Counted from the first letter of the stretch, positions 14,728 through 50,807 are shown. The stretch is 64,000 nt of DNA from Acidaminococcales bacterium (GCA_031552765.1 JAVBME010000011.1:4178-68177), one strand, 5' to 3'. Notes: a model not told the origin generated them from the sequence alone. Made by a program: numbers and translations.

Positions 14728-14895
14728 TCAATTCGCATTGGCGAAAACAACAGCAACCCAAGTCAGAAGAAAAAGACTGCCGAAAACCAGCAAAAAACCT
14801 TTGCTGTAATCCTTAACATCCCAGCGCGTCTTATCTTCCCGGCAGTATTTTGCAAAAGCCCGCCATATCTCGTTAAGCTGCGTTTTTTTACTCAT
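14728..14895 (-). CDS. Small single-TM hypothetical protein (55 aa)
   Basis: ATG overlaps the macB-like stop (TATGAGTAA); C-terminal hydrophobic stretch FLLVFGSLFLLTWVAVVF. Confidence 0.5.
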   Translation of the reverse strand: MSKKTQLNEIWRAFAKYCREDKTRWDVKDYSKGFLLVFGSLFLLTWVAVVFANAN

Positions 14896-16102
14896 AGCGC
14901 AGAGCCTCAATCGGATCTAGCAGCGCGGCCTTGCGGGCCGGATATATGCCGAAGAATAAACCTATGACCACAGAAAAACCAAAGGCCACGATTATCGCCG
15001 CGCCGGACACCACCGTATTCCATTCGGCAAAATGCGATATGGCGAACGCTCCGCCGATGCCTATAGCGATGCCCATACAGCCGCCCAATACGCCTATGAC
15101 TACAGACTCGATCAAAAACTGTAAAAGTACATTGCGGTAAGTAGCGCCCAGCGCTTTTCTTATGCCGATCTCGCGCGTCCGTTCGGTCACGGATACCAGC
15201 ATTATGTTCATTATGCCGATACCGCCTACCAAAAGGCTTATCGCAGCGATATTTCCCAATAAAAGAGTTATAGTGCCTGTAGTCTCTTCCGCGGTTTCCA
15301 TGATAGCCGCCATGTTGCGCACAGAAAAATCGTCGTCCTGACCGGATTTTATCCGGTGGCGCATACGCAGCAGCTGCTCCACGTCGGCCTGCACATTAGA
15401 CAGCACATCTTCGCTGACCGCCTGGATGCTTATGCGCTGAACAAAGGTTATGCCCATCATCCTCTGTTGGGCCGTAGTCAATGGGATAAACACCACGTCG
15501 TCCTGATCCTGTCCGACCGCCGACTGGCCCTTGCTTACTAAAAGGCCTACCACACGGAAAGGAGCTTTGTTTATCCTTATCGTCTGCCCGATGGGGTTCA
15601 TACCGCCAAACAGGCTGTCCGCCACAGTCTGGCCGATGATCGCTACCCGCGCCCGCGTATCCAGGTCGCGTTCGTTAAAAGCGTCGCCTTCCGCTATGGC
15701 AAAGTTGCGCACAGTGAGAAAATCCGGCGTAGTGCCTTCCACCTGCGTCGTCCAGTTCTGGTTGCCGAACACTACCTGGTACTGTCGTGATACTGCCGGC
15801 GCGATGGCGTTTACGCCGTCCACATTTTTCGCTATGGCCTTGGCATCGTCGTAAGTCAGGCGGGCGCCGGTACCGGCGGCCAGACGCGCTCCGCTGGCTG
15901 AAGTGCCGCCCGGCAGGACGATTATGAGGTTACTGCCGAGACTAGCAATAGAACTCCTCACCTTTTCCTGCACGCCCATACCGATGGATACCATAGTAAT
16001 GACCGCGCCCACGCCGATGATGATGCCGAGCATGGTCAATATGGAACGCATTTTATTCGCTTTCAGGCCTTCGACGGCTATAAGGACGCTTTCCCAAAAC
16101 AT
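14888..16102 (-). CDS. MacB/FtsX-type ABC exporter permease
   Basis: RSILTMLGIIIG, GGIGIMNIMLVSVTERTREIGIRKALGA and LDPIEALRYE motifs. Confidence 0.95.
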   Translation of the reverse strand: MFWESVLIAVEGLKANKMRSILTMLGIIIGVGAVITMVSIGMGVQEKVRSSIASLGSNLIIVLPGGTSASGARLAAGTGARLTYDDAKAIAKNVDGVNAIAPAVSRQYQVVFGNQNWTTQVEGTTPDFLTVRNFAIAEGDAFNERDLDTRARVAIIGQTVADSLFGGMNPIGQTIRINKAPFRVVGLLVSKGQSAVGQDQDDVVFIPLTTAQQRMMGITFVQRISIQAVSEDVLSNVQADVEQLLRMRHRIKSGQDDDFSVRNMAAIMETAEETTGTITLLLGNIAAISLLVGGIGIMNIMLVSVTERTREIGIRKALGATYRNVLLQFLIESVVIGVLGGCMGIAIGIGGAFAISHFAEWNTVVSGAAIIVAFGFSVVIGLFFGIYPARKAALLDPIEALRYE

Positions 16103-16162
16103 AGCATTTCTCCCGGTATCACAAGTGATAAAACTTCGTACCACGCCATTTTATCAGCTTTA

Positions 16163-16849
16163 TTATTTACTGTTCATCTCATCGTTTATAATCAAACCGT
16201 CACGCACGTATATCGCCCTTTTCGTCTGCTGAGCTATGTCAGGCTCATGGGTTACCAGTATAACGGTCTTGCCTTCGGCATTAAGGTCTTTGAGCATTTT
16301 CATAATGTCGTTGCCGGATTTGGTGTCAAGGTTGCCTGTCGGTTCGTCCGCCATAATGATGGCCGGCTCGTTCACAAGCGCCCGCGCTATCGCCACCCTC
16401 TGCCGCTGTCCGCCGGACAGTTCGTTCGGGCGGTGGTGAGAACGCTCGCCCAGTCCCACTTTTTCCAGCACCAAAGCTGCACGCGCCAGGCGTTCCTCCA
16501 GCGGCAAGCCGGCATAGACAAGCGGCAGCGCCACATTTTGCAAAGCCGACATCCTCGGCAGCAGGTTGAAACTCTGGAAAACAAACCCTATTTTTTTATT
16601 GCGCGTTATTGCCAGTTCGTCGTCGCTGTAATCGCTCACTTCCCGCCCGTCCAGCGTATAAGAGCCGCCGGTCGGCCGGTCGAGGCAGCCGAGTATATTC
16701 ATCAGTGTGGATTTTCCCGAACCTGAAGGCCCCATGATTGCGGCAAACTCACCCTTCGCGATAGAAAGGCTGACCCCGGCCAGCGCATTGACTATATTGT
16801 CGCCCATTACATATGTTTTGACTACATCCTTTACTTCTATCACATTCAC
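16163..16849 (-). CDS. MacB/LolD-type ABC ATP-binding protein
   Basis: [26 protein letters not shown] and VTH motifs. Confidence 0.96.
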
Positions 16850-16866
16850 CGGAGCAGCCTCCTTCC

Positions 16867-17979
16867 CTAGCGTCTAGGAGCGCCACCGCCGCCGGCGCTC
16901 CTTAAAGTCCGCTGGTCGGCAGCCTGTTTCTGCGCGGCGCTGTCGGTCACCTTGGCCGCGCCGGGCCTCAATACTACTTCGTCGCCTACCTTAAGGCCGC
17001 TCACTATCTCTACCCGGTCGTCGCCCCTCAGGCCGGTCTGCACCTCGATATCTTCCGTCTGGCCGCCCGGACGTACTACTTGTACATATTTTTTACCCTT
17101 CAAATCGCGCACCGCGGAAAAAGGCAGGGTCATAGCGCCTTTTTTCTCATCGGTCAATATTATGACGCGGGAAGTCATATTAGGGAAAAGTTTGTTCCTC
17201 GCATCAGCCACATCGACATATACCTTATAATAAATAACGTTGTTTTGCGTTTCCGCCTTGCGGGAAATCAGGCTGACCACGCCGTGGAAAACCATATCGG
17301 GATAAGAGTCTACCGTAAATTCCACTTTCTGCCCCTTGGCCACCTGGCCGATATCTGATTCGTCGACCAGCGTCTCGCTTTGCATTATCGACATGTCGGC
17401 GATCGTCATCAGCACCATTGGCGTGGAGATACCGGGCGCTACAGTTTGTCCTGCCGGCACGGGCTTGCCCACGACCAGGCCGTCCACCGGCGCCCTGATA
17501 ATGGTATCGTCAAGGTCGGAGGATGATTTTTCATAAGTGGCGAGCGCCACTTTATAATCGCGTTCAGAGGTATCGTAATCCTGCCAGGCGATCGCTCCCT
17601 GCTTGATCAAAGCGCTCATGCGATTAAAATTGGCCGTGGCGTTTTTGAGCGCGGCTTCTTTTTGCGCCAGGTCGCTCTTATACTGCATATCGTCAAGCAG
17701 TACCAAAGTTTGGCCGGCTTTTACCCAGTCGTTTTCCTGTACTTTTACATCGACGATACGCCCGGTTATTTTGGAGCTTATATCAACGCTGTTTACAGGC
17801 TTGACCGTGCCGGTCGCGGAAATAGACGAACGTATGTCGCTTTTTTCCACGCGCACTGTCTGCACTTTGCTCTCAGCGGCCTTTTGTTTTTTATAATATG
17901 CATAACCGCCATAAGAAGCTACTGCCAAAAGCAATACAACTACTATAACCTTCTTGAACTTCAAAAGCTGCCGCCACAT
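16867..17979 (-). CDS. MacA-like periplasmic adaptor (membrane fusion protein)
   Basis: N-terminal TM, barrel-sandwich hybrid segments, IRAPVDG and VDESDIG motifs. Confidence 0.93.
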
Positions 17980-18192: not shown

Positions 18193-18750
18193 GTGAAAAG
18201 ACGGCTTTTAATAACCATCCTGGGCCTCGGCCTCATCCACAACGTATTTAACTTTTTCCGCTCCTTCGATCCTGATATCGGCAGGTTTTTTCCTACAAAA
18301 CAAAAAAGGCCGCCGGTCAGCAGCCAAAAACAGCCGCCCGTCAGTAAAAATGCCGCATTGCCGGAAGGTTTTGCCGGTTTCAAATGGGGCTCCAAACCGG
18401 GCGATTTTGCCCAGCTCACACTTTTGGTCAACAAAGATGGACTCGCCACCTACGAAATGAAAAACCCTCAACGGCGCTACCCGGCGGAACTCACTGCCGG
18501 CATACCGCCAAAAAACACCCGTCTCTTCTTCCGTAACGGCGGCCTGGCCTATGCCATAATGGAGCTCGACGCAGAAACGGCTGATGTTAACAAAGACTTT
18601 TTAACAGAAAAATTCGGCAAAGCCAAAACAAGTCAGCAGGAAAAAACACAAGTCCACAGCTGGCAAAGCGGCAACACCATTATAAACTTTGTTGTTTATG
18701 ATAAAAAGCGCGCCTTCCTGCAACTGATTGACAGCAATTTGAAAAAGTGA
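18193..18750 (+). CDS. Hypothetical exported or membrane-anchored protein
   Basis: GTG start with RBS GAGGT, N-terminal hydrophobic segment and GFAGFKWG segment; family not recognised. Confidence 0.7.
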   Translation: MKRRLLITILGLGLIHNVFNFFRSFDPDIGRFFPTKQKRPPVSSQKQPPVSKNAALPEGFAGFKWGSKPGDFAQLTLLVNKDGLATYEMKNPQRRYPAELTAGIPPKNTRLFFRNGGLAYAIMELDAETADVNKDFLTEKFGKAKTSQQEKTQVHSWQSGNTIINFVVYDKKRAFLQLIDSNLKK

Positions 18751-18777
18751 CATTACTTTCAATATTTGCCAGCAACC

Positions 18778-18806
18778 TTGTCCTCTTGTTACCAAACTGG
18801 TAAAAT
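18778..18806 (+). promoter_or_regulatory. sigmaA promoter with overlapping palindromic operator TTACCA-N3-TGGTAA upstream of the XRE gene
   Basis: TTGTCC (18778-83), 17 nt spacer, TAAAAT (18801-06) with extended TG; perfect inverted repeat at 18789-18803. Confidence 0.65.
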
Positions 18807-18845
18807 ATATACAGAATCACACTGTCTACTGAAAGGTTGGCGTTT

Positions 18846-19148
18846 ATGTTAGGAAAAAACTTAAGATCCATGCGTGAAATCGCAGGCATGAGCCAAACCG
18901 AGGTAGCCCGTGACCTGAAGCTCAACAGAGTGACTTATAACCGTTACGAAACAGGCGAACGCGAACCGGGCGTACAGGTATTGCTCAGTCTGGCCGCTTA
19001 TTTTGACGTATCACTGGATTTCCTGCTCGGGCGGACGCCTTTGCGTCTGCCGCTGAACGCGCTCTATGCGCAACACAGCAGTTTGTCGAAAGATGCTGTG
19101 GAGAAAATAAACGCTATAATTTCTTCCTGCCACAACAGGAATGGCTAA
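18846..19148 (+). CDS. XRE/Cro-CI family HTH transcriptional regulator
   Basis: MSQTEVARDLKLNRVTYNRYETGEREP...LAAYFDVSLDFLLGR. Confidence 0.93.
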   Translation: MLGKNLRSMREIAGMSQTEVARDLKLNRVTYNRYETGEREPGVQVLLSLAAYFDVSLDFLLGRTPLRLPLNALYAQHSSLSKDAVEKINAIISSCHNRNG

Positions 19149-19176
19149 TGAAATACGCGAGAAATATGGGGTTTTT

Positions 19177-19797
19177 ATGAAAAAATTTTTATTCCTGCTG
19201 TTCATACTCATGTTTGCCGGTAAAGCCCAGGCCTGCTCCCATCACGATCACGGAGAAATCCATATCGATAGAGTGGAACGAAGCAGTTACAGGGCCAATT
19301 TTATTTTCGATTCCTTATCGCCCTGGAACTCTTACACGCTTAAAAGCGCCCGGGAACATGGAAAAAACTCCTGGGAAATAACCCTGGCGCGCGACACGGC
19401 GCAAGGCGACCTGCCGCTTACTATCACTATCGATATTACAGACGGCCGCAAACAGCCTCTCTTTTTGTCCGCCGCCAAACAACTAGCCTCTGCACAAAAT
19501 GACGTCAACCTTGACAGCCTGCTGCAAAGCGAGCTGCGCCAGCCTTTTGAAAGCGTCGGCCTTGAGAACGTTGACCACGGCCTGTTTGAAGGCCATCGTT
19601 TTATCGCTCTTTCGTCCGGCAAACACAAACGCCCCTGGTCTCTCGGCATGGTCACCTATCGCGGCGGCTATAAATATACCATAGGCATTGTTTTAAATCA
19701 GCCCGGCCGGCCGGAAACCGAAATAGACGGCTGGCTGGTCATTGGACAATTAAAAGCGATTATCGAGAGCATCCGCCCTTTATACCAAAAAGCATAG
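19177..19797 (+). CDS. Exported protein, array paralog 1 (possibly PsbP/DcrB-like fold)
   Basis: Signal peptide MKKFLFLLFILMFAGKAQA; shared array motifs; His-rich mature N-terminus. Alternative start at 19141. Confidence 0.75.
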   Translation: MKKFLFLLFILMFAGKAQACSHHDHGEIHIDRVERSSYRANFIFDSLSPWNSYTLKSAREHGKNSWEITLARDTAQGDLPLTITIDITDGRKQPLFLSAAKQLASAQNDVNLDSLLQSELRQPFESVGLENVDHGLFEGHRFIALSSGKHKRPWSLGMVTYRGGYKYTIGIVLNQPGRPETEIDGWLVIGQLKAIIESIRPLYQKA

Positions 19798-19835
19798 GCG
19801 CCTTTCACAATTCTTTTATCAAAAAGGAGAAAAAT

Positions 19836-20420
19836 ATGAAAAAACTAGCTGTTTTCCTTCTCGCCATGCTGTGCGCCGCAGCAACGGCCCTGGGCGCCGC
19901 CAACATCGAGCACACAGTAGACGAAGCTAATATACGCTTTAAGACTCTGCCAGACTGGAGCAAGAAAGACATAGCAAGCACTCCGGCTGCTAGTGAGCCC
20001 GGCTGGACAGTGACTCTGTCAAAAGAGGGCGCTCCCGGCAAACAATCTCCTGTGTCCATACTCATAGTAGACGGCAGGAAAAACGAAGCTTACCAGTACA
20101 TGAGCGTCGATTTCCAGGGCAAAGGGGCCAGGAACCTGTCCGAGCAAATAATACAGGACAACCGCGTCCAGCAAAGCCAAAAAGGCTACCAGATAAACGA
20201 CTACCGGCTGGCAAAGATCGGCAAAATAAATTTTCTCATTATAAAATCGGAAAATCCACGGCAAAAAATACTTGCGCTGCAAGCCATCACTTTCCTGAAC
20301 AACTACAGCTACACCATAGCCACTAAAACCAGTCCGGGCGCTTCCCCGCAAGAAATAAAAACCATTACGGAAAATTTCGACCTCATCATCAAAAGTTTAC
20401 AAGTCAAAAAAAGCAAATAA
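19836..20420 (+). CDS. Exported protein, array paralog 2
   Basis: Signal peptide; EHTVDEANIRFKTLPDW...ENFDLIIKSL; RBS AAGGAG. Confidence 0.8.
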   Translation: MKKLAVFLLAMLCAAATALGAANIEHTVDEANIRFKTLPDWSKKDIASTPAASEPGWTVTLSKEGAPGKQSPVSILIVDGRKNEAYQYMSVDFQGKGARNLSEQIIQDNRVQQSQKGYQINDYRLAKIGKINFLIIKSENPRQKILALQAITFLNNYSYTIATKTSPGASPQEIKTITENFDLIIKSLQVKKSK

Positions 20421-20507
20421 AAGCAAGGTGATATCCCGCGAAGCTTCGCCTGTTTGCCGGATGACGGCCAACAGTTAATAAAAAGCCTGACGGCAAAGGA
20501 GTTTGAC

Positions 20508-21107
20508 ATGAAAAAATTTGCCATAGCACTATCTTTAAGCATTATCACATTCTTCACTTCGTTTACCGCATGTTTTGCCGAGCAGCTTGCTTTCAACACC
20601 CACGCCGCCGAACTTGGGAAGTTCACCTGCCAGACGCTTTTACCCTGGAACGAAATGATAATTGCCAATGAAGAAACCGTAGACGGCAAAAAAACCTACA
20701 AGTACACCATTTACGCAAGGCCGGCCAAAAGGCGCCTTTATCCTGTTGTCATAATGGCGACCAACGGCATGGGCGACCCTCTGTACGATAAACTTTCCGC
20801 GGCTTTTAAAGAAGGCGGCGATCAGACAGCCCTGAATGAATTTTTAAATGACGAGATGGCCGCGGTTGTTCAAAAAAATAACGTCATTACCTTGCACGGC
20901 ATATATACGACCAAAAATACCCGGCAGAAATTTATCATTATTTCTTCGGAAAAAGGCAACGAATCCACCATATACGCTTCCACCTATATCAACGGCTTCA
21001 ATTACTCCTTTTTCCTGCCTACCGGGCGAGAGTACAAAGAAGACGAACTTAATCAGCTCAAAACTAATTTTTTTAAAATACTCGATACTTTCAAAACTAC
21101 CGGTTGA
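20508..21107 (+). CDS. Exported protein, array paralog 3
   Basis: Start moved to the ATG after AAGGAG; signal peptide; FTCQTLLPW...TNFFKILDTF. Confidence 0.8.
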   Translation: MKKFAIALSLSIITFFTSFTACFAEQLAFNTHAAELGKFTCQTLLPWNEMIIANEETVDGKKTYKYTIYARPAKRRLYPVVIMATNGMGDPLYDKLSAAFKEGGDQTALNEFLNDEMAAVVQKNNVITLHGIYTTKNTRQKFIIISSEKGNESTIYASTYINGFNYSFFLPTGREYKEDELNQLKTNFFKILDTFKTTG

Positions 21108-21120
21108 TAAAGGAGACGCC

Positions 21121-21396
21121 ATGCAAGAGGTCAAAATATGCCAAAGCTGCGCCATGCCACTGGTAAAAGACGCCGATTTCGGCACAGACAAAGCTGGCGG
21201 AAAAAGCTCTGATTATTGTTCTTACTGTTATAAAAACGGCTCTTTTACACAGGATATGGACATGGAGGCGATGATCGAACACTGCACGCAGTTTCTCGAT
21301 GTATTCAACAAACACGCCCAAATCAAACTAACCCGTGAACAGGCCGTAGAACAAATGCGACAGCACTTCCCCAGGCTCAAGCGCTGGGCAAAATAA
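21121..21396 (+). CDS. Putative zinc-ribbon protein (Zn_ribbon_2-like)
   Basis: CQSCAMP...YCSYCYKNGSF...LKRW; RBS AAGGAG. The real start is 21121, not 20848. Confidence 0.85.
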   Translation: MQEVKICQSCAMPLVKDADFGTDKAGGKSSDYCSYCYKNGSFTQDMDMEAMIEHCTQFLDVFNKHAQIKLTREQAVEQMRQHFPRLKRWAK

Positions 21397-21410
21397 GAGG
21401 AGAGCCTGCC

Positions 21411-21989
21411 ATGAAAAAACTTCTTTTGCTGCTTTGCCTGCTCTTTTTTGCCTGTCCTACCGGTGAGGCCGTGCCCGCTATGCCTTATGCCAGCCTGCGC
21501 AATACCGAAGCCAATATCGCCTTTAACGCAAATACAGAGTGGAACCGCCTTGATCTGACAGCCCGCTCTCAGTCCGGCAACGGTCCGGCCTACAATCTGA
21601 CCTTGCACAACACAGTTACCCGCGCCCAAACCGATAATGTTTATATCCAGATTTCTGACGTAAGCAAAAATACCGCCTCGCTCAATGAAAATGAAATAGA
21701 AAGCGCGCTGGTCGGGTCGGTCAATATCATGCAGGAAAATTTTGCCACACTAGGTTTTGAAAACTTCGGTCGCGATACCTATCAGACCGCAGGCAAAAAA
21801 TTCATCATGCTTTCCGCTTTGCGCCCGTCGGACGCCAGCCAGTTGCTTTGGGCGGCAACAATAACGAACGGCTATCTCATTCATGTACAAGCCTATGTAA
21901 ACAGCGGTTTTAGCAGTACCGAATACACCAAGCGCGCCAGCAATTTCCGTATCATCCTTGATACCGTAAGGCCACTAAATGCGCGCTGA
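21411..21989 (+). CDS. Exported protein, array paralog 4
   Basis: Signal peptide (possible FFAC lipobox); EANIAFNANTEW...SNFRIILDTVRPL. Confidence 0.8.
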   Translation: MKKLLLLLCLLFFACPTGEAVPAMPYASLRNTEANIAFNANTEWNRLDLTARSQSGNGPAYNLTLHNTVTRAQTDNVYIQISDVSKNTASLNENEIESALVGSVNIMQENFATLGFENFGRDTYQTAGKKFIMLSALRPSDASQLLWAATITNGYLIHVQAYVNSGFSSTEYTKRASNFRIILDTVRPLNAR

Positions 21990-22000
21990 CAAAGGAGGCA

Positions 22001-22636
22001 GTGATGAAAAAAATACTGGCTGCCATACTTATAGCTGCATTCATCGGCCTGGCCATTCTTTATATCCTACCCATGAAAAATCTTTTTCCCCGCACCGCGT
22101 TGGTACAAGACAACCGGCCGCCGGTCGAACACTTTGTAAAAGAAGCTGATTTTAGTGTAAAAACCTTTGCCGCCTGGGACAAAAGCAGCCCGGTCAAAAC
22201 ACAAGACAATAATAAAACCAAGGAATTTACTGTAGACATTTATCAAAGCAATGGCGGCAAAAACGAATATCCTATAAAAATTACTGTAAAACCGGCGCCG
22301 GACGACCTTACTCAATTTGCCCCGGGGGTTCCTTTTGCCCTTGTTCCCAACGGCATACTAATAGACCAGGTTGTGCCGCAAAGCGAGCGGGCCTTTAAAT
22401 TGACCGGCGGGGAAATACTCTTGTCTTCTATAGTTACCGCGCCGGCAGCTAAATTTGTCTTCCTTGCCGCCAGAAAAGGCACGACCTTTGCCCTTTATGC
22501 CACCACAGTGATAGGAGGCTACCAGTATATTTTTTTGCAGGACATAGAAAAAAGCGACACGTTCAGCCAAGAAGAACTCGAAGTATTAAAAAACAACTTC
22601 AAGCTCGTCCTGGATAGTTTTAAACCGATCAGCTAA
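22001..22636 (+). CDS. Membrane-anchored or exported protein, array paralog 5
   Basis: N-terminal TM; VEHFVKEADFSVKTFAAW...NNFKLVLDSFKPI. Confidence 0.8.
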   Translation: MMKKILAAILIAAFIGLAILYILPMKNLFPRTALVQDNRPPVEHFVKEADFSVKTFAAWDKSSPVKTQDNNKTKEFTVDIYQSNGGKNEYPIKITVKPAPDDLTQFAPGVPFALVPNGILIDQVVPQSERAFKLTGGEILLSSIVTAPAAKFVFLAARKGTTFALYATTVIGGYQYIFLQDIEKSDTFSQEELEVLKNNFKLVLDSFKPIS

Positions 22637-22764
22637 AACACAGATACAACAATGCCGTAGTATAGCTTTCCAACCGAACAGGCTGGCCTGCATCATGGAA
22701 CATGACTTGTCTTCTTTATTCCAATAACCCTTTTGCCGCTTAATAAAAAATAAGGAGACCTCAA

Positions 22765-23853
22765 ATGAAAAAGTTTTTTGCCACCTTTCTCTGCCTGGTT
22801 TTTTTACTTTTAGCCGGCCCTGCCGCAGCGGAAAACATCGTCCACAAATCGGCGGATTACGGTTTCAGTTTCGAAGCTACCGGCGACTATGGCCGCTTTA
22901 TCCTGGCGGAAAAAGGCATAACGCCAAAAGACGGGATGTTTTTTGCCACATATGTGCTCGCCCCCAGCAAGCCAAAGCTGCCGCCCATCGTCATCAGGGT
23001 GTCCTACGGCAACTTTTTCCTTGATAAAAGTATTACTTTTGACAGCTTGTTCCATGACCGCAAAATGCAAAAAAAATATATTAACGAACTGCAAACCGCC
23101 TCGCCTGAACTGAAAGCAAAAATAACCGGCGAGAAAACCGCGGGGAAAAACCGTTTCCTCGTCACTCATTTTAAAGGTAAAGAACTTGATTTTTTTAATT
23201 ATGCCGCCGCTAAAAAAGATGAGTTGATAGACATCACTTACCGGAACCTCAAAAACCTCACGCCAAGTGAAAGCAAAATACTGGAAGAAAATATCGAACT
23301 GGTCTTAAAAACCATCACCTGGCCGGACAGCCTGTCCACTCAAACGGAAATCAAACAAAATTCAGAAAAAAAACGCGTAGATTACAAACTTGACAATATC
23401 GGCCTGGCTTTTTCCAGCACAGAAGCTTTTCCTCAAGCCAATGCGCTTAAAATCTCCACCACCTTTCCAGCTTTCATTTGCATGCTGTACAGCGAAAAGC
23501 GCCTGTATCCGCCAGTAGATATCTGGTGCAGCAGCGCGCCGAAAAAACAGGCTGACGTTTCCTACAGTAAAGATAAATACGCCGATGACTTTGAAAAAGA
23601 GGTCAAACGCCCTGACGCCCTGACCAATATCAAATACAGCAGGCTGTTTGCCAGAAAAGCCGTAGTAACGCCGAATTACAAATTTATCGTCACCATCCTT
23701 GAAGTGGACGGCAAAAAGGACTTTTCCGCCAAAACTATAGAAAATGGCAAGACCTACACAATACACACCAACGCGCCTATGAATAAACCGGAACAACACC
23801 GGGCAGTGGAAGAGAATTTCTACCTGGTGCTCGAAACATTCAAAATATTATAA
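22765..23853 (+). CDS. Exported protein with two tandem copies of the array domain (paralog 6)
   Basis: Signal peptide; domain 1 ends EENIELVLKTITW and domain 2 ends EENFYLVLETFKIL. Confidence 0.8.
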   Translation: MKKFFATFLCLVFLLLAGPAAAENIVHKSADYGFSFEATGDYGRFILAEKGITPKDGMFFATYVLAPSKPKLPPIVIRVSYGNFFLDKSITFDSLFHDRKMQKKYINELQTASPELKAKITGEKTAGKNRFLVTHFKGKELDFFNYAAAKKDELIDITYRNLKNLTPSESKILEENIELVLKTITWPDSLSTQTEIKQNSEKKRVDYKLDNIGLAFSSTEAFPQANALKISTTFPAFICMLYSEKRLYPPVDIWCSSAPKKQADVSYSKDKYADDFEKEVKRPDALTNIKYSRLFARKAVVTPNYKFIVTILEVDGKKDFSAKTIENGKTYTIHTNAPMNKPEQHRAVEENFYLVLETFKIL

Positions 23854-23863
23854 AGGAGTTACC

Positions 23864-24256
23864 ATGTTCCCTTTTTTAAAATCTCTGTTTAATTTTAAAG
23901 GCCAGATGGCCAGAAAGCAGTATGCCCTGGTGAATTTAGGGCTTCTCGTTTTCCTCCTCTTTTTGGCCAAATTGCAAGCATTCGGCATCATCCTGCCTAA
24001 TGCCGTCGGCGTGCCTCTATTGATAATAATGGCGGTCATCCGCCTCTTTAGCGATGTGCAACGCCTGCGCGACCTGCACCAGCCCATAATAGCAATTTTA
24101 TTCGTAGTGGCACTAATATTGTTCCTGCCGGAATTTACCATACAGGTAATCCTTATCTGGACCATCTCACTGGCGCTTATCAAAAACAGCGATGCTATCA
24201 GTAAAAAATTGCCGCCTGCACTGTCTAAAGAAAACGGCAAGGAGGATAAGGTTTGA
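23864..24256 (+). CDS. DUF805-like membrane protein (divergent)
   Basis: FNFKGQMARKQY...VQRLRDL, resembling the DUF805 G.R..R..Y/RRLHD pattern. Confidence 0.7.
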   Translation: MFPFLKSLFNFKGQMARKQYALVNLGLLVFLLFLAKLQAFGIILPNAVGVPLLIIMAVIRLFSDVQRLRDLHQPIIAILFVVALILFLPEFTIQVILIWTISLALIKNSDAISKKLPPALSKENGKEDKV

Positions 24257-24642
24257 AAACCTTCTTCTCGTCTCTTTTGCTGTACCAGGGCCGCCACAAC
24301 CGTAAACAGTTTATCTGTAGCCAGCTTATTGCCTATACAATAATGCTGGTTCCCCTTTTTGTGGTGGGTTACGACATTGTCGAGCACTACGGGCCAAACT
24401 TGCCACAAGAAGAGTACCAGCATATACTGTTTGGGCAATACGCGTTCATTACTATGCCGCCTGTAATTATTGCCGCTTACCTCCTGCTGGCCAGCTATAT
24501 GAAGCGCCTCCACGACCTTGGCCACGCCGGCTGGTGGGCCCTGCTCATACTTTTTCCCTATATCCGCTACGCCTGCCTTTTATACTTGACCATACAAAAA
24601 GGAGAACCGGACACTAACATATATGGGCCGGCACAGGCCTAA
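24253..24642 (+). CDS. DUF805-family membrane protein
   Basis: YQGRHNRKQF...KRLHDLGHAGWW...KGEPDTNIYGP. Confidence 0.88.
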   Translation: MKTFFSSLLLYQGRHNRKQFICSQLIAYTIMLVPLFVVGYDIVEHYGPNLPQEEYQHILFGQYAFITMPPVIIAAYLLLASYMKRLHDLGHAGWWALLILFPYIRYACLLYLTIQKGEPDTNIYGPAQA

Positions 24643-24684
24643 CGCCAGATAAAAATAAATAAAATGCAAAAGGATACCATCAGC

Positions 24685-25269
24685 ATGAAAAAAATCTTCC
24701 TCATAGCAATCCTTTTGTTGTGCTGCGGCTGTAGCGCCAACTTACCCATGCCAAAACAGCCTACAGTCGAACATGTCAGCAAAGAGGCGCGCTTCTCACT
24801 GCGCACCACCCCGGACTGGAATAAAATGACTACTATCACCCAAACCAATGTCAACAACCAGCCTTTTTATTGTCTCGCCATCTACCCGGAAAACAAGCCC
24901 AAAGACCAAGGAATATGGATATATTCCGTCGACGAGAAAAACAGCCAAACTGCCATCCAGCAGCTGGCCGCGCTCTTAAACAAAAAACCGTCGGAAACCG
25001 TCCTACAGGAAATAAAAAAAGCCGAGCAACAGGCCTTCCTGCAAAAAGGCTGGCAGGAAAGCGGCAGCAGCCTGCACAAAGCCCCGGCGGCCGACTTTAT
25101 TGTCATGACCAATAAAAAGGGCAAGGCTACCGTCCTATACGCCATAACATATTATGATAACGTAAAATACACTGTATTTTTGAACATACCGCCCGGCTCG
25201 CCCAAACCTGATGAAGAAAAGGCGCGTGAAAATTTTTTCCTAACGCTTGATACCTTCCGGCCGCTATAA
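24685..25269 (+). CDS. Lipoprotein, array paralog 7
   Basis: MKKIFLIAILLLCCGC lipobox; VEHVSKEARFSLRTTPDW...ENFFLTLDTFRPL. Confidence 0.8.
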   Translation: MKKIFLIAILLLCCGCSANLPMPKQPTVEHVSKEARFSLRTTPDWNKMTTITQTNVNNQPFYCLAIYPENKPKDQGIWIYSVDEKNSQTAIQQLAALLNKKPSETVLQEIKKAEQQAFLQKGWQESGSSLHKAPAADFIVMTNKKGKATVLYAITYYDNVKYTVFLNIPPGSPKPDEEKARENFFLTLDTFRPL

Positions 25270-25317
25270 AGGTTTAATATTGACTGTTTAAAATAAGCTA
25301 TCGGAAAGTGGTGAAAT

Positions 25318-26769
25318 ATGACCTTAGGCCTTGCCGTTTTTTTATTGTTGCTGCTTCTTGCCCTGACTTTAGCAAAACCACACGTGAATAAGAAAAAATA
25401 TGCCAGTACCTTGTTTATCCCGGGCCTGGCTTTGCTATCAGCAGCGACATCATATGCACTCGTGGCCCTGATTGCTGAATATACCGACGTTTTTTATGAC
25501 GGCTCCCCACGTTTCTTCTTAATAGTGGCAATTGTCGGCGTGGCGCTGTTCTACTTGTTCCTGAAAACACTGAATAAGCCGCTAGAGCACTTCAGCGGGC
25601 GCGCCTGGCTGCTGCGCGCGCTGCTTACACTAGCGGTTATTATTTTATTCGGTTACGCCGGGCTAGGCATCTTTATTATCTTTGCGCTCAGCGGACAAAA
25701 GACTTTTTATCTGCTTATCGCGTTTTTGTTCTGGCTGTTGCTGCTTTATATTTTCCTGACGATCATATGGCGGCGCGACCGCTTCAAAAGACAGCGTAAA
25801 TACCTTTTCGCCATATTTTTACTTTGCACATTGACTATAGGCGGTTATTACATGTGGGAACTGCAACAGGAAAAAATCCCCGTACTGCGCGACCGCGCCA
25901 TAGAATTGACCCAATATGAACCCTTTAAAAAATCCGCCAAATTGGCCCGACTAGAAGCGCCGGCGCGTTTTAAAATAACGGAGAACCTGCCCCGTTTAGA
26001 CGGAGCTATCGCTCTTTACCCTATAATGGCCGCTTTTGTTGAGGCGACTTACCCTACCGGCGACTACAGCGAGCCGCAAAGCGATGGCAAAAAACTGTTG
26101 CGTATGAGAAATACCCCTGGCGCTTATCAGGCTTTAATCGACGGTGAAGTTGACATCATTTTTGTCGCCGCTCCTTCCGCCGCGCAAAAAGAAGCGGCCA
26201 GAAAGGCCGGCGTACAGCTAAAAATGACGCCTATCGGCAAAGAAGCATTTGTATTTTTTGTCAATAGCCAAAACCCGGTGACCGGTCTTACTGTGGCGCA
26301 AATACAAAACATTTACAGCGGCAATATCACCAACTGGCAGGCAGTCGGCGGGAAAAATGACCGCATCAAAGCTTTTCAGCGCAACGCCGGCAGCGGCAGC
26401 CAATCCGCCCTGGAGCGGCTGATGCAGGGCAAACCGCTCATGCGGCCGCCTATCGAAGAACGCCCGGGCGGCATGGGCGGGATCGTGGAAATGACCGCCG
26501 ACTACAAAAACCACTATAACGCCCTCGGTTTTTCCTTCCGCTATTTTACCGCCGAAATGTTTACCAGCAACCAGATACGCCTGCTAGCGATAAATGATGT
26601 GCCGCCAAACAAAGACACTATACGAAATGGCAGCTATCCCCTTACTGCCGAATTTTACGCAGTCACTGCCGGCTCGAAAAATCCCCAGGTGCAACCATTT
26701 ATCGACTGGATGCTGTCTGACGAAGGTCAGGAATTGATAGAAAAAACTGGATATGTAGGCTTGAACTAG
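25318..26769 (+). CDS. Multi-TM protein fused to a PstS/PBP-like substrate-binding domain
   Basis: About 6 N-terminal TM segments, then LDGAIALYP, EAFVFFVN..NPV, IYSGNITNW..VGG and QRNAGSGSQ. Confidence 0.85.
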   Translation: MTLGLAVFLLLLLLALTLAKPHVNKKKYASTLFIPGLALLSAATSYALVALIAEYTDVFYDGSPRFFLIVAIVGVALFYLFLKTLNKPLEHFSGRAWLLRALLTLAVIILFGYAGLGIFIIFALSGQKTFYLLIAFLFWLLLLYIFLTIIWRRDRFKRQRKYLFAIFLLCTLTIGGYYMWELQQEKIPVLRDRAIELTQYEPFKKSAKLARLEAPARFKITENLPRLDGAIALYPIMAAFVEATYPTGDYSEPQSDGKKLLRMRNTPGAYQALIDGEVDIIFVAAPSAAQKEAARKAGVQLKMTPIGKEAFVFFVNSQNPVTGLTVAQIQNIYSGNITNWQAVGGKNDRIKAFQRNAGSGSQSALERLMQGKPLMRPPIEERPGGMGGIVEMTADYKNHYNALGFSFRYFTAEMFTSNQIRLLAINDVPPNKDTIRNGSYPLTAEFYAVTAGSKNPQVQPFIDWMLSDEGQELIEKTGYVGLN

Positions 26770-26799
26770 AAAACACCCGGATAACATCCGGGCGTTTTT
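26770..26799. terminator. Bidirectional intrinsic terminator
   Basis: AAAACACCCGGAT-aac-ATCCGGGCGTTTTT between convergent genes. Confidence 0.8.
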
Positions 26800-42467: not shown

Positions 42468-43376
42468 TTATTTTGCTATTTCTTTCGCCATTTTTTGGAT
42501 ATTTCTATGGTATTCCAACATAAATTCTTTAAAGGCCAGGGCCTGTTCGGAAAGATAAGCATCCTTTTTCCACAGTATTACCTGCGTCCGGTGGATAGGA
42601 GGATCGGCAATCTTTACAAAAATAGCATTGCCTAAATCGCCGGTAGGCAGCACCGAACCGGTAGTAAAAACAATACCGTATTTAGCTGCCAGCATCTTTG
42701 GACGCAAAGCATAGTCGCACTCCAAAACAATTTTAGGGTCAAAACCAACCATTTGGCAGAGGCGGTCAAAATACCTGCGCATGGAATAACCCTTGGAAAC
42801 AGCAATGAAACTTTCTTCCCTGCCTTCGATAAAACTTACTTCTTTGCGTTCGGCAAAAGGGTGGCCCGGATATACAGCAAAATAGGGCCAATCATCGTAA
42901 TTGAGTATTTCGTAATTCCACTTTTCTTCCGGCAGGTCATATCTGGCAGTAATTATAAAATCAAACTGTGAGCAATAGGAAGGATTGGCCATTTGGTCGG
43001 TTTTTATGAGGACATGGGAAAGTTTGACATCCGGCCGGTGTTCGATAAAAGCCTGAAACGCATCCAGCCAAACCACCGGGCTGCTTATGCCCACCGTCAA
43101 TCTTGTAGTCTGGCTCTTGGTAGACATTTCCATTTCTTTTATGGCATTGTCCAAAGTAGCAAAGACTGTATTGACATGTTTTAGATAGATGTGACCGCAT
43201 TCATTCAGTTTCATCCGTTTCCCGTTTCGGTCAAACAGCTTGTAGCCCAACTGCTGCTCCAGCCTGTTGATGCTGGCGCTCAAAGATGGCGCCGAAACCA
43301 TCAATTCACGGGCTGTGTCAGTCAAGTGCTCCTTTTCCGCCAAAGCTTTAAAATAACGCATTTGCAGCAAACCCAC
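42468..43376 (-). CDS. LysR-family transcriptional regulator
   Basis: QMRYFKALA...TARELMVSAPSLSASINRLEQQLGYKLFDR. Probable GTG start after a G-rich RBS. Confidence 0.93.
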   Translation of the reverse strand: MGLLQMRYFKALAEKEHLTDTARELMVSAPSLSASINRLEQQLGYKLFDRNGKRMKLNECGHIYLKHVNTVFATLDNAIKEMEMSTKSQTTRLTVGISSPVVWLDAFQAFIEHRPDVKLSHVLIKTDQMANPSYCSQFDFIITARYDLPEEKWNYEILNYDDWPYFAVYPGHPFAERKEVSFIEGREESFIAVSKGYSMRRYFDRLCQMVGFDPKIVLECDYALRPKMLAAKYGIVFTTGSVLPTGDLGNAIFVKIADPPIHRTQVILWKKDAYLSEQALAFKEFMLEYHRNIQKMAKEIAK

Positions 43377-43450
43377 AACAAACGCCCCCCACTGTATATC
43401 AAAGCAATTATAATTAAATATTATCATATAAAAGAAAAAAATCAACTATT

Positions 43451-43731: not shown

Positions 43732-45012
43732 ATGGATAAAAGCACTATTGCGATCATTATCATAGCGGTCGCTATTGTATCCTTCGTGCTGGAAAAAATC
43801 CCTCTTGCCGTAACTGCTATGGCTGCCAGCGTACTTATGGGCGTGACCAAGGTCATGCCGTTCGCGAATGTCTCCAACGGTTTCGGCGCCACCGTCACCA
43901 TGATGGTCGCCGGTATGATGATCGTCGGCAATGCTTTGTTTGAAACAGGCGTGGCCCGCATTATCGGTATCAAAATCGCCAACAGCCCCTTAGCCAAAAA
44001 CGAGCGTGTATTTACCTTTGTTATTGTCGTCATTTGCTGCATCCTGACAGGCTTTTTGAGTAACTCCGCCGTCATCGCCATGTTCATGCCGATCATCGGC
44101 GCCGTGGCCAGCCGTTCTGGCGGCCGCATCCAGGCGAAAAACATCACCATCATGGCCGGCATGGCCTGCGCAGTCGGCGCCAGCATCACTATGGTAGGCT
44201 CCACAGCGCAGTTAGTGGGCCAGGGCATACTCATGAAAACCCAGGGCGCCCGCGCGCTCGGCTTTTTTGAAATGGCCCCCATCACAGTCATCTTATGCGT
44301 GGTTTTCTGTATATATGCCGCTACCATCGGCAATTCCATCGCCAGAAAAACCTTTGACTTTGAAAATCCTTCTGCTGTCACGACAAATACGGAGGAAATA
44401 GATGAGGAAATCAAAATCACCTGGCAAATGGTCCTCTCCAGCGTAGTAATGATCCTTTGCATCACCGGCTTTGTGCTCAATGTCTGGAATGTAGGCATCA
44501 TCGGCCTGGCCGGCGCGACCGTGCTCCTGGCCACAAAATGCATCGACTACAAGAAAGCCCTGCGCGAACTGGACTGGAATACCCTCATAATCCTTGGCGC
44601 AGCTCAGGGTTTTGCTTATGGCCTTGATGTCTCCGGCGGCGGTAAAGTCATCGCCAACTTTACTCTTTCCGTTTTTGGCGGCTCCAGCGCTTCCCCCTAT
44701 GTCCTTTTGGTAGTAGGCATCGTTTTATCGACAGTACTTACTAACTTTATGTCCAACACCGCAGTTGTAGCTATGCTTGTACCTATCTTTATACCGATAT
44801 CTTTCGCTCTCAATGTATCACCCATACCTTTCGCCATAGCAGTCATCATCTCGGCCAACAACGCCATATCGACGCCTATAGGTACACCCTGCGTCACCCA
44901 GACCCTGCCCGCCGGTTACCGCTATATGGACTATGTGCGCGTAGGTCTGCCGATAAATATTATCCTGGTAATAATGACCTGCCTTCTGATGCCCATACTC
45001 AGTCCGTTATGA
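43732..45012 (+). CDS. SLC13/DASS-family permease, copy 1
   Basis: Polytopic 426 aa with FLSNSA, FMSNTA, STPIGTP and GYRYMDY motifs. Confidence 0.9.
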   Translation: MDKSTIAIIIIAVAIVSFVLEKIPLAVTAMAASVLMGVTKVMPFANVSNGFGATVTMMVAGMMIVGNALFETGVARIIGIKIANSPLAKNERVFTFVIVVICCILTGFLSNSAVIAMFMPIIGAVASRSGGRIQAKNITIMAGMACAVGASITMVGSTAQLVGQGILMKTQGARALGFFEMAPITVILCVVFCIYAATIGNSIARKTFDFENPSAVTTNTEEIDEEIKITWQMVLSSVVMILCITGFVLNVWNVGIIGLAGATVLLATKCIDYKKALRELDWNTLIILGAAQGFAYGLDVSGGGKVIANFTLSVFGGSSASPYVLLVVGIVLSTVLTNFMSNTAVVAMLVPIFIPISFALNVSPIPFAIAVIISANNAISTPIGTPCVTQTLPAGYRYMDYVRVGLPINIILVIMTCLLMPILSPL

Positions 45013-45362: not shown

Positions 45363-46643
45363 ATGGATAAAAGCACTATTGCGATCATCATCATAGTGGT
45401 CGCCATTGTATCCTTCATGCTGGAGAAAATCCCTCTTGCCGTAACCGCTATGGCTGCCAGCGTACTTATGGGCGTAACCAAAGTCATGCCGTTCGCCAAT
45501 GTCTCCAACGGTTTTGGCGCCACCGTCACCATGATGGTCGCCGGTATGATGATCGTCGGCAATGCTTTGTTTGAGACGGGCGTGGCCCGCGTCATCGGCA
45601 TCAAGATAGGCAACAGCCCGCTGGCGAAAAACGAAAAAGTATTTACCTTTATTATTGTCGTCATTTGCTGTATACTTACAGGCTTTTTGAGCAATTCGGC
45701 CGTCATCGCCATGTTCATGCCCATAATCTCAGCCGTGGCCAGTCGTTCAGGCGGCCGCATCCAGGCGAAAAACATCACCATCATGGCCGGTATGGCTGCC
45801 GCCGTTGGCGCCAGCATCACTATGGTAGGCTCCACAGCCCAGTTAGTGGGCCAGGGCATACTCATGAAAACCCAGGGCGCACGCGCGCTCGGCTTTTTTG
45901 AAATGGCTCCCATTACAGTTGTTCTTTGTATAGTTTTTTGCATTTATTGCGCGACCATCGGCAATACAATAGCCAGAAAATCTTTTGACTTCGAAGAGCC
46001 TCAGATCGGTGAAACGAACGACAATGAATTGGATGAAAACATCACTATTACCTGGCAAATGGTGCTGTCCAGCGTCGTCATGATCCTTTGTATAGCCGGT
46101 TTTGTGCTCAATGTCTGGAATGTCGGCATCATCGGCCTGGCTGGCGCCACAGTGCTCCTGGCCACCAAGTGCATCGACTACAAAAAAGCCCTGCGCGAAC
46201 TGGATTGGAACACTCTTATCATACTCGGCGCAGCCCAGGGCTTTGCCTACGGCCTTGATGTCTCCGGCGGCGGCAAAGTCATTGCCAACGCTACCCTATC
46301 CGTATTCGGCGGCGTCAGCGCCTCGCCTTATGTCCTTTTGATAGTGTCCATAGTCATCTCCATGGTACTCACCAACTTTATGTCCAACACCGCAGTAGTA
46401 GCCATGCTTGTGCCTATTTTCCTGCCAATAGCTTTTGCGCTCAATGTTTCGCCGATACCCTTTGCTATAGCCATCATCGTATCAGCCAACAACGCTATAT
46501 CGACGCCTATAGGCACACCCTGCGTCACCCAGACCTTGCCGGTCGGCTACAGGTATATGGACTATGTAAAAGTGGGCCTGCCAATAAACATAATACTTGT
46601 TATAATGACCTGCCTGTTGATGCCTATACTCAGCCCGTTCTAA
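45363..46643 (+). CDS. SLC13/DASS-family permease, copy 2 (tandem paralog)
   Basis: 426 aa, colinear and highly similar to 43732-45012. Confidence 0.9.
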   Translation: MDKSTIAIIIIVVAIVSFMLEKIPLAVTAMAASVLMGVTKVMPFANVSNGFGATVTMMVAGMMIVGNALFETGVARVIGIKIGNSPLAKNEKVFTFIIVVICCILTGFLSNSAVIAMFMPIISAVASRSGGRIQAKNITIMAGMAAAVGASITMVGSTAQLVGQGILMKTQGARALGFFEMAPITVVLCIVFCIYCATIGNTIARKSFDFEEPQIGETNDNELDENITITWQMVLSSVVMILCIAGFVLNVWNVGIIGLAGATVLLATKCIDYKKALRELDWNTLIILGAAQGFAYGLDVSGGGKVIANATLSVFGGVSASPYVLLIVSIVISMVLTNFMSNTAVVAMLVPIFLPIAFALNVSPIPFAIAIIVSANNAISTPIGTPCVTQTLPVGYRYMDYVKVGLPINIILVIMTCLLMPILSPF

Positions 46644-49427: not shown

Positions 49428-50807
49428 ATGACGGGGAAGCGTGTAGTCAAATCTTTGTTGCTGCTCATCATACCGGCGGCGGCTTATTATATTTGCAAAA
49501 GTTACGGCCTGCGGCAGGATTATGCCATTTATGCCGCCATAACAAGCTGGGCGGTCTACTGCTGGGCGTCGCTCATGCTCTCTTCCGCCATGGTCGGCGT
49601 GGCTTTGCCTGTCATGTACCTGTTATCCGGCATCGCCGGCGTGAATGTGGTCTTTGCCCCCTGGGGCAATATGCTGCCCTGGTTTTGCCTCTCCGGCATG
49701 CTCATAGGTCACATGCTGCTAAAAACCGGGCTGGCCAACCGGGTAGCCTATAAATGCATATTGATCTCCGGCGACAGGTTTTATAATGTGCTGTTTGGCA
49801 TTATGATCGCCGGTTTTCTCGTTTCCCCCCTCATCCCTACCGCCCTCGGCAAGATGGCTATTTTTTGCGCGCTGGGCCTGGGGATAGCCAACGCCATGCA
49901 GCTCGACCCTCTTTCCAAAGAATCGTCCGCGCTTATGCTCACTTGCCTGTTCGCAGTAGCGCCGCCCTCTTACTGTTTCCTCACCAGCTGCGTGCAAGTG
50001 CCGGCAAGCGTCCAGCTTATGACCCAGGCCAGCGGCATCAAGGTGACCTGGTTCGAATATGCCTGGCACAACTTTTTACCAGCGGTAATCTACAGTTTTT
50101 TGTGTTTTGGCGCCATGCTGGCCGTGTTGCGCCCTGACAACCACGGCGGCGGCCGGGCGACCATCGCGGAAAAATATCAGGCTTTAGGAAAAATGGGCAG
50201 GGATGAAAAAAAAGCTATGGTCATACTGGCCATAACCCTTCTTTTCCTCGTTACCGACTCCTGGCACCAGATAAGCCTGGCTTGGGGCATGGTACTTATA
50301 ACACTCTTGATGTTTTTGCCTGGTGTTGATTTATTAGAAAACAGCGATTTTGAAAAAGTAAACCTCGCCATGCTGTTTTTTATCGCCGGAGCCATGTCCA
50401 TCGGCTCAGTGGCTGTACATATCGATATAGCCAAGCAACTGGCGGAAAATATCGCCGGCCTTTTCCAGTTCGGCGAGAAGGTATTTTACTTGTGGCTAAG
50501 CTATTTTTCCGGCATAATCATGCTGTTTTTCCTCACGCCGACCACTTCGCTCATCGCGCTCAGCGTGCCTTTGACAGAAGTAGCCTTAAAGCTAGGCATA
50601 GACCCGAGGGCCATGCTTTATTCTTTTATCTTCGGCATGGATCAGTATATATTTCCCTATCAGTATGGCGTCGTACTGCTTTTATATTCATATGAGCGCC
50701 TCGGGATGCGGCATCTCATGCTGGTATTGGCCGGCAAGGCAATAGTCGCTACAGCCGTGTTTTTCCCGCTGATACTTTTTTATTGGAAAATCATCGGTTT
50801 GTGGTAA
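49428..50807 (+). CDS. SLC13/DASS-family permease, divergent third copy
   Basis: Polytopic 459 aa with KTGLANRVA, LGKMGRDEKK and FPYQ segments. Confidence 0.8.
   Translation: MTGKRVVKSLLLLIIPAAAYYICKSYGLRQDYAIYAAITSWAVYCWASLMLSSAMVGVALPVMYLLSGIAGVNVVFAPWGNMLPWFCLSGMLIGHMLLKTGLANRVAYKCILISGDRFYNVLFGIMIAGFLVSPLIPTALGKMAIFCALGLGIANAMQLDPLSKESSALMLTCLFAVAPPSYCFLTSCVQVPASVQLMTQASGIKVTWFEYAWHNFLPAVIYSFLCFGAMLAVLRPDNHGGGRATIAEKYQALGKMGRDEKKAMVILAITLLFLVTDSWHQISLAWGMVLITLLMFLPGVDLLENSDFEKVNLAMLFFIAGAMSIGSVAVHIDIAKQLAENIAGLFQFGEKVFYLWLSYFSGIIMLFFLTPTTSLIALSVPLTEVALKLGIDPRAMLYSFIFGMDQYIFPYQYGVVLLLYSYERLGMRHLMLVLAGKAIVATAVFFPLILFYWKIIGLW

Follow-up and report, generated by a model that had tools for sequence, protein, structure and literature searches.

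The 64-kb window analysed here (64,000 nucleotides of an Acidaminococcales bacterium genome, GCA_031552765.1, JAVBME010000011.1:4178-68177; positions are those of the window unless another locus is named) contains a tandem array of seven genes, A1–A7, predicted to encode exported proteins built from one diverged domain. In our favoured interpretation, to which we would give an even chance, the array arose by lineage-specific expansion of a sequence family that is new within the PsbP/Mog1/DcrB fold superfamily; it belongs to the envelope of a diderm Acidaminococcales-type Firmicute, and its copies would act as periplasmic binding or docking modules for different clients. The genes of the array are as follows:

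19177–19797, + strand: A1, the most diverged copy
19836–20420, + strand: A2, the ancestral type, with a DGRK motif; the copy closest to the single-copy genes of other genera
20508–21107, + strand: A3, predicted exported PsbP-fold paralogue
21411–21989, + strand: A4, predicted exported PsbP-fold paralogue
22001–22636, + strand: A5, predicted PsbP-fold paralogue with an N-terminal membrane anchor
22765–23853, + strand: A6, 362 aa with two profile domains, A6n (~23–190) and A6c (~191–362)
24685–25269, + strand: A7, probable lipoprotein copy, the one whose structure was modelled

An earlier sequence-only reading of the window had described these proteins as hyper-diverged but true paralogues, and blastp, profile search and profile–profile alignment all confirm this. 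With A7 as the blastp query, A2, A5, A3 and A4 were matched at 66.2, 66.2, 58.2 and 53.5 bits, respectively, with 22–28% identity over nearly the full length. Since A1 and A6 are weaker in pairwise comparison, a profile was built without them and then searched. It matched A1 with 63.6 bits (E 2.5e-18) and A6 in two domains, with 28.7 bits (positions 1–189) and 28.8 bits (positions 120–191); no further six-frame open reading frame (ORF) of at least 80 aa in the window was found at E ≤ 10. With the same sequences left out, hhalign gave 98.0% for A1 (167 columns), 95.6% for A6n (159 columns) and 95.6% for A6c, the last over 71 columns only. The shared motifs pointed out in the earlier reading (VEH..EA.F...T...W, F-I/L-I/V, YA.T..NGY.Y and NF.L.LDTF.P) are visible in the alignments. 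These comparisons support homology of seven domains over their full length. As for the eighth, A6c, the comparisons back the C-terminal strands and helix; its N-terminal 100 residues fit in length, and the support for homology covers the C-terminal part. The proposed count of eight domain copies thus holds for seven full-length copies and, for A6c, over the 71 aligned columns. A search of the whole genome gave eight family matches, all within this locus.

A PsbP-type fold is assigned to the family because of the A7 model, two structure aligners and a profile link to a PsbP_2-scoring lipoprotein encoded by the same genome. The AlphaFold2 model of mature A7, computed from a 24-row family alignment, has a mean pLDDT of 90.1 and a pTM of 0.86. 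From its N-terminus, it runs through five strands and two helices to four more strands and then a C-terminal helix. It displays the features by which the fold was judged: the sandwich is alpha-beta-alpha, a beta-hairpin stands at the N-terminus, the central sheet is antiparallel, and a helix forms the C-terminus. Foldseek returned 20 matches at E ≤ 0.001, the first 14 of which were all PsbP, CyanoP or PnsL chains. The best match was 2vu4 (E 2.8e-5), and the immunity protein TplEi was found far lower (E 0.03); no cadherin was among the matches of the fold searches. The lipoprotein of the same genome, encoded elsewhere (L093:1492-2070), passes the thresholds of both PsbP_2 (33.5 against 27 bits) and PsbP (29.1 against 23.5 bits). 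In hhalign, the array family matched the small group of this lipoprotein with 98% (E 2.4e-13), and with signal peptides stripped and only the eight domains of the window used, with 93.5% (E 2.4e-7, 148 columns). The PsbP/Mog1/DcrB-like fold proposed in the earlier reading is thus demonstrated at the level of a predicted structure and profile comparison. The gene of the lipoprotein lies on the minus strand of its contig (G000:C32), has a canonical lipobox and stands directly downstream of a gene that by eye is GalU-like.

A1–A7 gave no match at E ≤ 1 to the Pfam models PsbP (PF01789), PsbP_2 (PF18933) and DcrB (PF08786). A search of the PDB with the sequence profile yielded nothing meaningful (the top match was carbonic anhydrase III, E 0.42). 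In the ESM Atlas, the clusters nearest to A7 are unnamed, and a PsbP-bearing cluster (15% of its members) first appears at rank 30. The conserved columns of the family are mostly those of the hydrophobic core together with H14, W29, T139, Y146, N167 and T174 (A7 numbering). No catalytic-looking constellation was seen among them, and by appearance the copies are non-enzymatic.

The genome that contains the window (G000) has a size of 2.4 Mb in 48 contigs and is 100% complete by marker genes. Its genes for LpxC and four OmpM-like SLH proteins point to a diderm envelope. DNA of the locus occurs in an invertebrate gut metagenome, and the proteins of its relatives are labelled as those of ‘Acidaminococcales bacterium’ metagenome-assembled genomes. 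A family gene was found in all five species genomes of the GTDB family, that is, in G000, in a sister genus (G001) and in three single-copy relatives (G002, G003 and G004), with 8, 6, 1, 1 and 1 strong matches, respectively. Searches of 36 genomes from three further families of this order gave no match, nor did, at E ≤ 1e-5, 150 other genomes spanning 29 families of the class. Within this sampling, the family is therefore confined to one taxonomic family. When A2 alone was compared with genome contigs, no relative was found.

The profile was also compared with 1.84 billion representative proteins, and 104 were matched at E ≤ 0.001. Family size (180–219 aa, or 358 aa for the two-domain form) is seen in only 21 of them. 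The remaining 83 are proteins of 565–5952 aa matched at profile positions ~12–117 (mostly ~35–100) in 3–15 stretches, and these were discounted as relatives. All five of the long proteins that were checked are cadherin-like/Big_9 repeat proteins. Such matches are probably sums of motif matches, with convergence on V.I.V.D-type strands. The case indicates that a small beta-rich profile can gather spurious E-values from repeat proteins.

A maximum-likelihood tree was constructed for the family. In this tree, A2, A3, A4, A5, A6n and A6c each pair with a counterpart from the sister genus with 99–100% support (A3 100/99, A4 100/100, A5 100/100). The stems of the orthologue pairs measure 1.2–2.6 changes per site, with only 0.28 for the A2 pair. 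Well-supported pairs on long stems show that the array is old. A2 shares its half of the tree with the genes of G002 and G003, which are single-copy (split 80/90, drawn open). A1 forms a long branch and has no orthologue in the sister genus. Gene order in the sister genus is the same between the same flanks (MacAB-type efflux genes; PstS-like, epimerase and thioesterase genes). A1, A7 and the XRE-family gene are missing from its locus, and one DUF805 gene there occupies another position. Amino acid identity between the two genomes is 54.5% for A2, 48.5% for A6 (a 358-aa orthologue) and 70% for the PstS-like protein. The Zn_ribbon_2 orthologue, in the same position, is 63% identical, the protein up185 described below 47%, and the DUF805 proteins 52% and 33%. 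The ancestral arrangement was one A2-type gene paired with up185. At least six duplications preceded the split of the two genera, after which order and one-to-one orthology were kept. No DNA-level repeat or recent conversion was found among the array copies.

The array is part of a run of thirteen co-oriented genes (18193–26769, + strand) with intergenic spacers of −4 to 128 nt. The ORFs, co-orientation and tight spacing given in the earlier reading are all present. The six genes of the run that do not belong to the family are as follows:

18193–18750, + strand: up185, membrane-anchored exported protein (transmembrane helix, disordered linker, alpha+beta domain of ~125 aa)
18837–19148, + strand, probable ATG at 18846: XRE-family helix-turn-helix (HTH) regulator (HTH_3, E 9.5e-15)
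21121–21396, + strand: Zn_ribbon_2 protein, without export signal (cytoplasmic) (PF12674, E 3.4e-30)
23864–24256, + strand: DUF805-like inner-membrane protein (PF05656, 23.3 bits, under the Pfam cut-off of 25.7)
24253–24642, + strand: DUF805 inner-membrane protein (PF05656, E 3.5e-17, 63.3 bits)
25318–26769, + strand: PstS-like binding domain joined to a polytopic membrane N-terminus, the last co-oriented gene (PBP_like_2, E 1.9e-32)

The interleaved Zn-ribbon gene and two DUF805-like genes of the earlier reading are recovered, with one of the DUF805 genes above the Pfam cut-off and the other under it; the sister-genus orthologue of the latter reaches 30.4 bits with PF05656. The membrane-tethered PstS-like protein scores 130.6 bits with the PstS-family model TIGR02136, under its cut-off of 206.6, and the XRE protein 54.8 bits with an RstR-like model, under its cut-off of 80. 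A1–A7 and up185 match no Pfam, NCBIfam or PADLOC model; in the PADLOC scan of the cluster, the XRE gene alone was matched, and only by generic HTH models. A promoter-like site with an extended −10 element lies ahead of the XRE gene (18778–18806), and a terminator-like hairpin lies 3' of the PstS-like gene (26776–26792). The setting is one of chromosomal housekeeping genes: a MacAB/HlyD efflux operon (14888–17979) runs divergently from the array, and the flanks also contain NadD, methylmalonyl-CoA-epimerase-like and thioesterase genes. No recombinase was found among the ORFs scanned at 14–33 kb of the window.

Elsewhere in the window, there are three nearby CitMHS/Na-sulfate-symporter-type transporter genes (43732–45012, 45363–46643 and 49428–50807), two of which are tandem and encode 426 aa each. 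Beside them are genes for a thiolase, a family III CoA-transferase and a LysR regulator (42468–43445, where GC is 40%), and the whole looks like an organic-acid uptake and fermentation locus.

Some data on expression come from a metatranscriptomic run of the same study. Its contigs identical to the locus bridge XRE and A1 (18854–19283), A1 and A2 (19357–19879), and A4 and A5 (21780–22133), and further identical pieces lie inside up185, A3 and the PstS-like gene (eight pieces of the run listed, 14 contigs). Metatranscriptome libraries may contain DNA, contigs are no proof of single transcripts, and the uncovered stretches (most of A2, A6–A7) are uninformative; with these limits, the contigs lend weak support to transcription and co-transcription of the locus. 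One contig joins 21801 to 25853, skipping 4051 nt; with 20 letters on one side, which is under the reliability mark, it is probably chimeric.

The most constant neighbour is up185, the only one kept in all five genomes. The locus had been called XRE-headed, which is true of this genome; the XRE gene is not kept in the syntenic array of the sister genus and none was seen at the loci of G002–G004, so the conserved head of the cluster is up185. The up185 family is tiny (9 proteins among 5.8 billion), and the only lead for it in the ESM Atlas is YjgB/DUF4309 (0.86). Complex prediction for its globular domain (55–185) with A2-type proteins (22–194) gave a score of 0.00 against a mark of 0.32; run without controls, it is evidence neither way. 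A DUF805 gene is present at the locus in three of the five genomes; a literature search on DUF805 found no functional study. Where the family gene is single-copy (three genomes), co-oriented SLH/OmpM-type porin genes come directly after it (identified with Pfam in G002 and G003 and by eye in G004), so that in three genera a gene of the ancestral type stands directly upstream of OmpM genes.

Membrane proteins and a regulator in one co-oriented cluster might also suggest a periplasmic sensor or ligand-binding repertoire, in which the copies would bind small molecules or envelope fragments and report via the DUF805 proteins, the PstS-like protein and the XRE regulator, in the manner of RseB/MucB or the sensor domain of PknH, whose folds are related. 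In G002, two tandem response-regulator/HD-domain genes (Response_reg and HD_5; L017:2556-4647) are indeed located just upstream of the up185-like/family pair. We nevertheless consider a sensor role quite improbable: the cluster contains no kinase, anti-sigma or sigma factor gene, the XRE gene is not conserved, and the DUF805 and Zn_ribbon_2 genes are without a known signalling role.

The proposed binding or docking role is favoured because of the analogy with DcrB–Lpp, LpqN, PsbP and Eag chaperones. In PMC13712963, DcrB is described as an inner-membrane DUF1795 lipoprotein with chaperone-like binding of Lpp; LpqN and EagT6 are said there to bind hydrophobic ligands. By this analogy, each copy would be a non-catalytic binding or docking module with its own envelope client, which might be a lipid, a lipoprotein or a segment of a protein, and the paralogues would be subfunctionalised adaptors or chaperones for different clients. 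The two DUF805 proteins, the membrane-tethered PstS-like protein and up185 would be co-encoded membrane partners, and the XRE protein would add local transcriptional control in this genome. Characterised members of the fold work in this way: Lpp is the partner of DcrB, MmpL transporters and lipids are those of LpqN, membrane complexes those of PsbP and PnsL, and transmembrane helices those of Eag chaperones.

The nearest characterised proteins are PsbP, CyanoP and PnsL (PF01789; 2xb3, 2vu4, 7wg5_f) and the bacterial PsbP_2 proteins (PF18933), which the array copies resemble in their predicted export to the extracytoplasmic side, in their presumed non-enzymatic docking and in the profile–profile link via the protein in the same genome that scores with PsbP_2. 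CyanoP is itself a lipoprotein. The array differs from this group in that its host is a non-photosynthetic anaerobe, in the lack of a Pfam-level match (E ≤ 1) and in the tandem eight-domain expansion, which includes one two-domain protein. With DcrB (DUF1795, PF08786; 6e8a) and LpqN/Mtc28 (6e5d, 4pws) the likeness would be binding of envelope clients. There is no sequence-level membership, the structural match is weaker than that to PsbP, and DcrB and LpqN are not known as eight-copy arrays. At two further loci (L090:1057-1587 in G004 and L091:1070-1603 in G002), a distant exported PsbP-like gene was observed immediately downstream of an RND (AcrB-type)-looking gene, as judged by eye, an adjacency that recalls the LpqN–MmpL partnership.

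The position of the family gene beside genes for OmpM-type outer-membrane tethers or porins in three relatives parallels the DcrB–Lpp pair. A more specific proposal, which we regard as improbable, is that the family is the diderm-Firmicute counterpart of the DcrB–Lpp safeguard: periplasmic PsbP-fold chaperones would escort or dock OmpM/SLH-type tethers, porins and other envelope clients, and the eight-copy array would represent client-specific diversification together with up185 and the DUF805 proteins.

Several observations weigh against the interpretation of the copies as envelope binding modules. A shared fold by itself proves no function, and the clients or ligands are putative. In both G000 and G001, the SLH genes are on contigs other than that of the array, so that the OmpM link is not universal. 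Copy number varies by genus (8, 6, 1, 1 and 1), and A1, A7 and the XRE gene are specific to G000 relative to G001. The island has also changed 4–6 times faster than its housekeeping flanks (dN 0.40–0.70 against 0.06–0.12), which is atypical of core envelope factors and typical of conflict genes. Between the two genomes, the array proteins are 41–54% identical (dN 0.40–0.61) and the flanking proteins 81–90% identical (dN 0.06–0.12); the fast change spans the whole island and not the PsbP-fold genes alone. Because dS is saturated (1.1–3.5) or undefined, the dN/dS ratios of 0.04–0.30 are uninterpretable.

Rapid divergence, a copy number of 1 to 8 with A1 and A7 extra in this genome, and the XRE gene at the head of the array would fit an orphan-immunity or decoy array, an idea raised in the sequence-only reading. 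Each periplasmic copy would then neutralise a different periplasm-acting toxin (lipase, muramidase or similar) from neighbouring gut bacteria, as TplEi/Tli4 (5h7y), Tsi3 (4luq_C) and PA3488/Tli5 (7wdk_B) do with type VI secretion system (T6SS) effectors. The sample is from a dense gut community, and structure comparison shows that the three immunity proteins, which are periplasmic, have the same fold as the A7 model. Some T6SS immunity proteins are tandem paralogues or two-domain proteins, and like the array copies, for which a periplasmic location is inferred, they evolve fast. PMC3482391 describes PsbP/MOG1 proteins in T6SS operons beside toxin genes and fused to SuFu-type immunity proteins of polyimmunity loci, which counts in favour of immunity, and in PMC3792639 PsbP/MOG1 proteins are reported in toxin loci.

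We nonetheless rate immunity as unlikely, though with a real chance of being correct. No toxin domain was found by Pfam in the cluster, in its flanks or in the loci of the four relatives, which upholds the earlier statement that no toxin gene is visible in the window, although orphans would need no neighbouring toxin. A delivery system is also missing: TssC/VipB and RHS_repeat have no matches in the genome, and TPS reaches 19.1 bits against a cut-off of 33.5. Whereas T6SS immunity genes accompany effectors, the array has no adjacent effector and its genome no T6SS. The locus is chromosomal, between housekeeping genes; its order and one-to-one orthologues are kept across genera, and the family gene is present in all five genomes, always with up185. 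PADLOC matched nothing except the XRE gene, and TplEi was matched by the A7 model far less well than PsbP. Mobile orphan-immunity (AID-like) islands, which are marked by a mobile-element setting (an integrase or recombinase, strain-variable content), differ as well, since the flanks here are syntenic and 81–90% identical in the sister genus, and no recombinase was seen at 14–33 kb. The fold and the fast evolution thus fit the conflict idea, whereas the missing toxin and delivery system and the ordered orthologues of six of the eight domains do not. A pattern of this kind, an invariant array under purifying selection across relatives, had been named in the sequence-only reading itself as speaking against conflict; copy number does vary.

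Export signals and lipoboxes were judged by eye from the translations, without a predictor, with [LVI][ASTVI][GAS]C as the lipobox pattern where the signal peptide ends. All seven proteins begin with MKK and a hydrophobic stretch. A2, A3 and A6 appear to be substrates of signal peptidase I, A1 has AQAC, A4 has a possible lipobox (FFAC), and A5 has what looks like an uncleaved anchor. A7, with CCGC|S, is probably a lipoprotein because its nearest relative, P0011, has a canonical LTGC|S. Each copy would thus be exported to the periplasm, with A2, A3, A6 and probably A1 soluble, A7 and perhaps A4 lipid-anchored, and A5 membrane-anchored. The predicted mature N-terminus of A1 (19234–19263) has a Cys/His-rich stretch, C-S-H-H-D-H-G-E-I-H, after the predicted signal peptide; it is not found in the other copies and could be a metal-binding tail.

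This distribution of anchors bears on one more possibility, namely, outer-membrane-exposed copies whose variation would serve to mask or replace receptors used by phages or epitopes that the host recognises. The divergence and expansion of the family would agree with it, and DcrB was first named for resistance to phage C1. We consider such surface variation very improbable, as only one or two copies look lipid-anchored by eye, no switching machinery (invertase, repeats or conversion tracts) was seen, and the orthologues are stable across genera.

For the array seen as a set of envelope binding modules, the novelty lies in a sequence family that occurs in a single Acidaminococcales-type family, has up185 and DUF805 as fixed partners and, in three genera, adjoins OmpM genes. 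The fold was already known, as was the notion of PsbP-like periplasmic families that have expanded. Literature searches on DUF805 and on PsbP_2 and PsbP-like lipoproteins or folds, the only ones made for this purpose, turned up no account of such arrays in Negativicutes. Outer-membrane biogenesis and tethering in diderm Firmicutes, which lack Lpp, are poorly understood. Fast-evolving, family-wide periplasmic PsbP-fold binders would be concrete candidates for factors of envelope assembly or protection in these bacteria.

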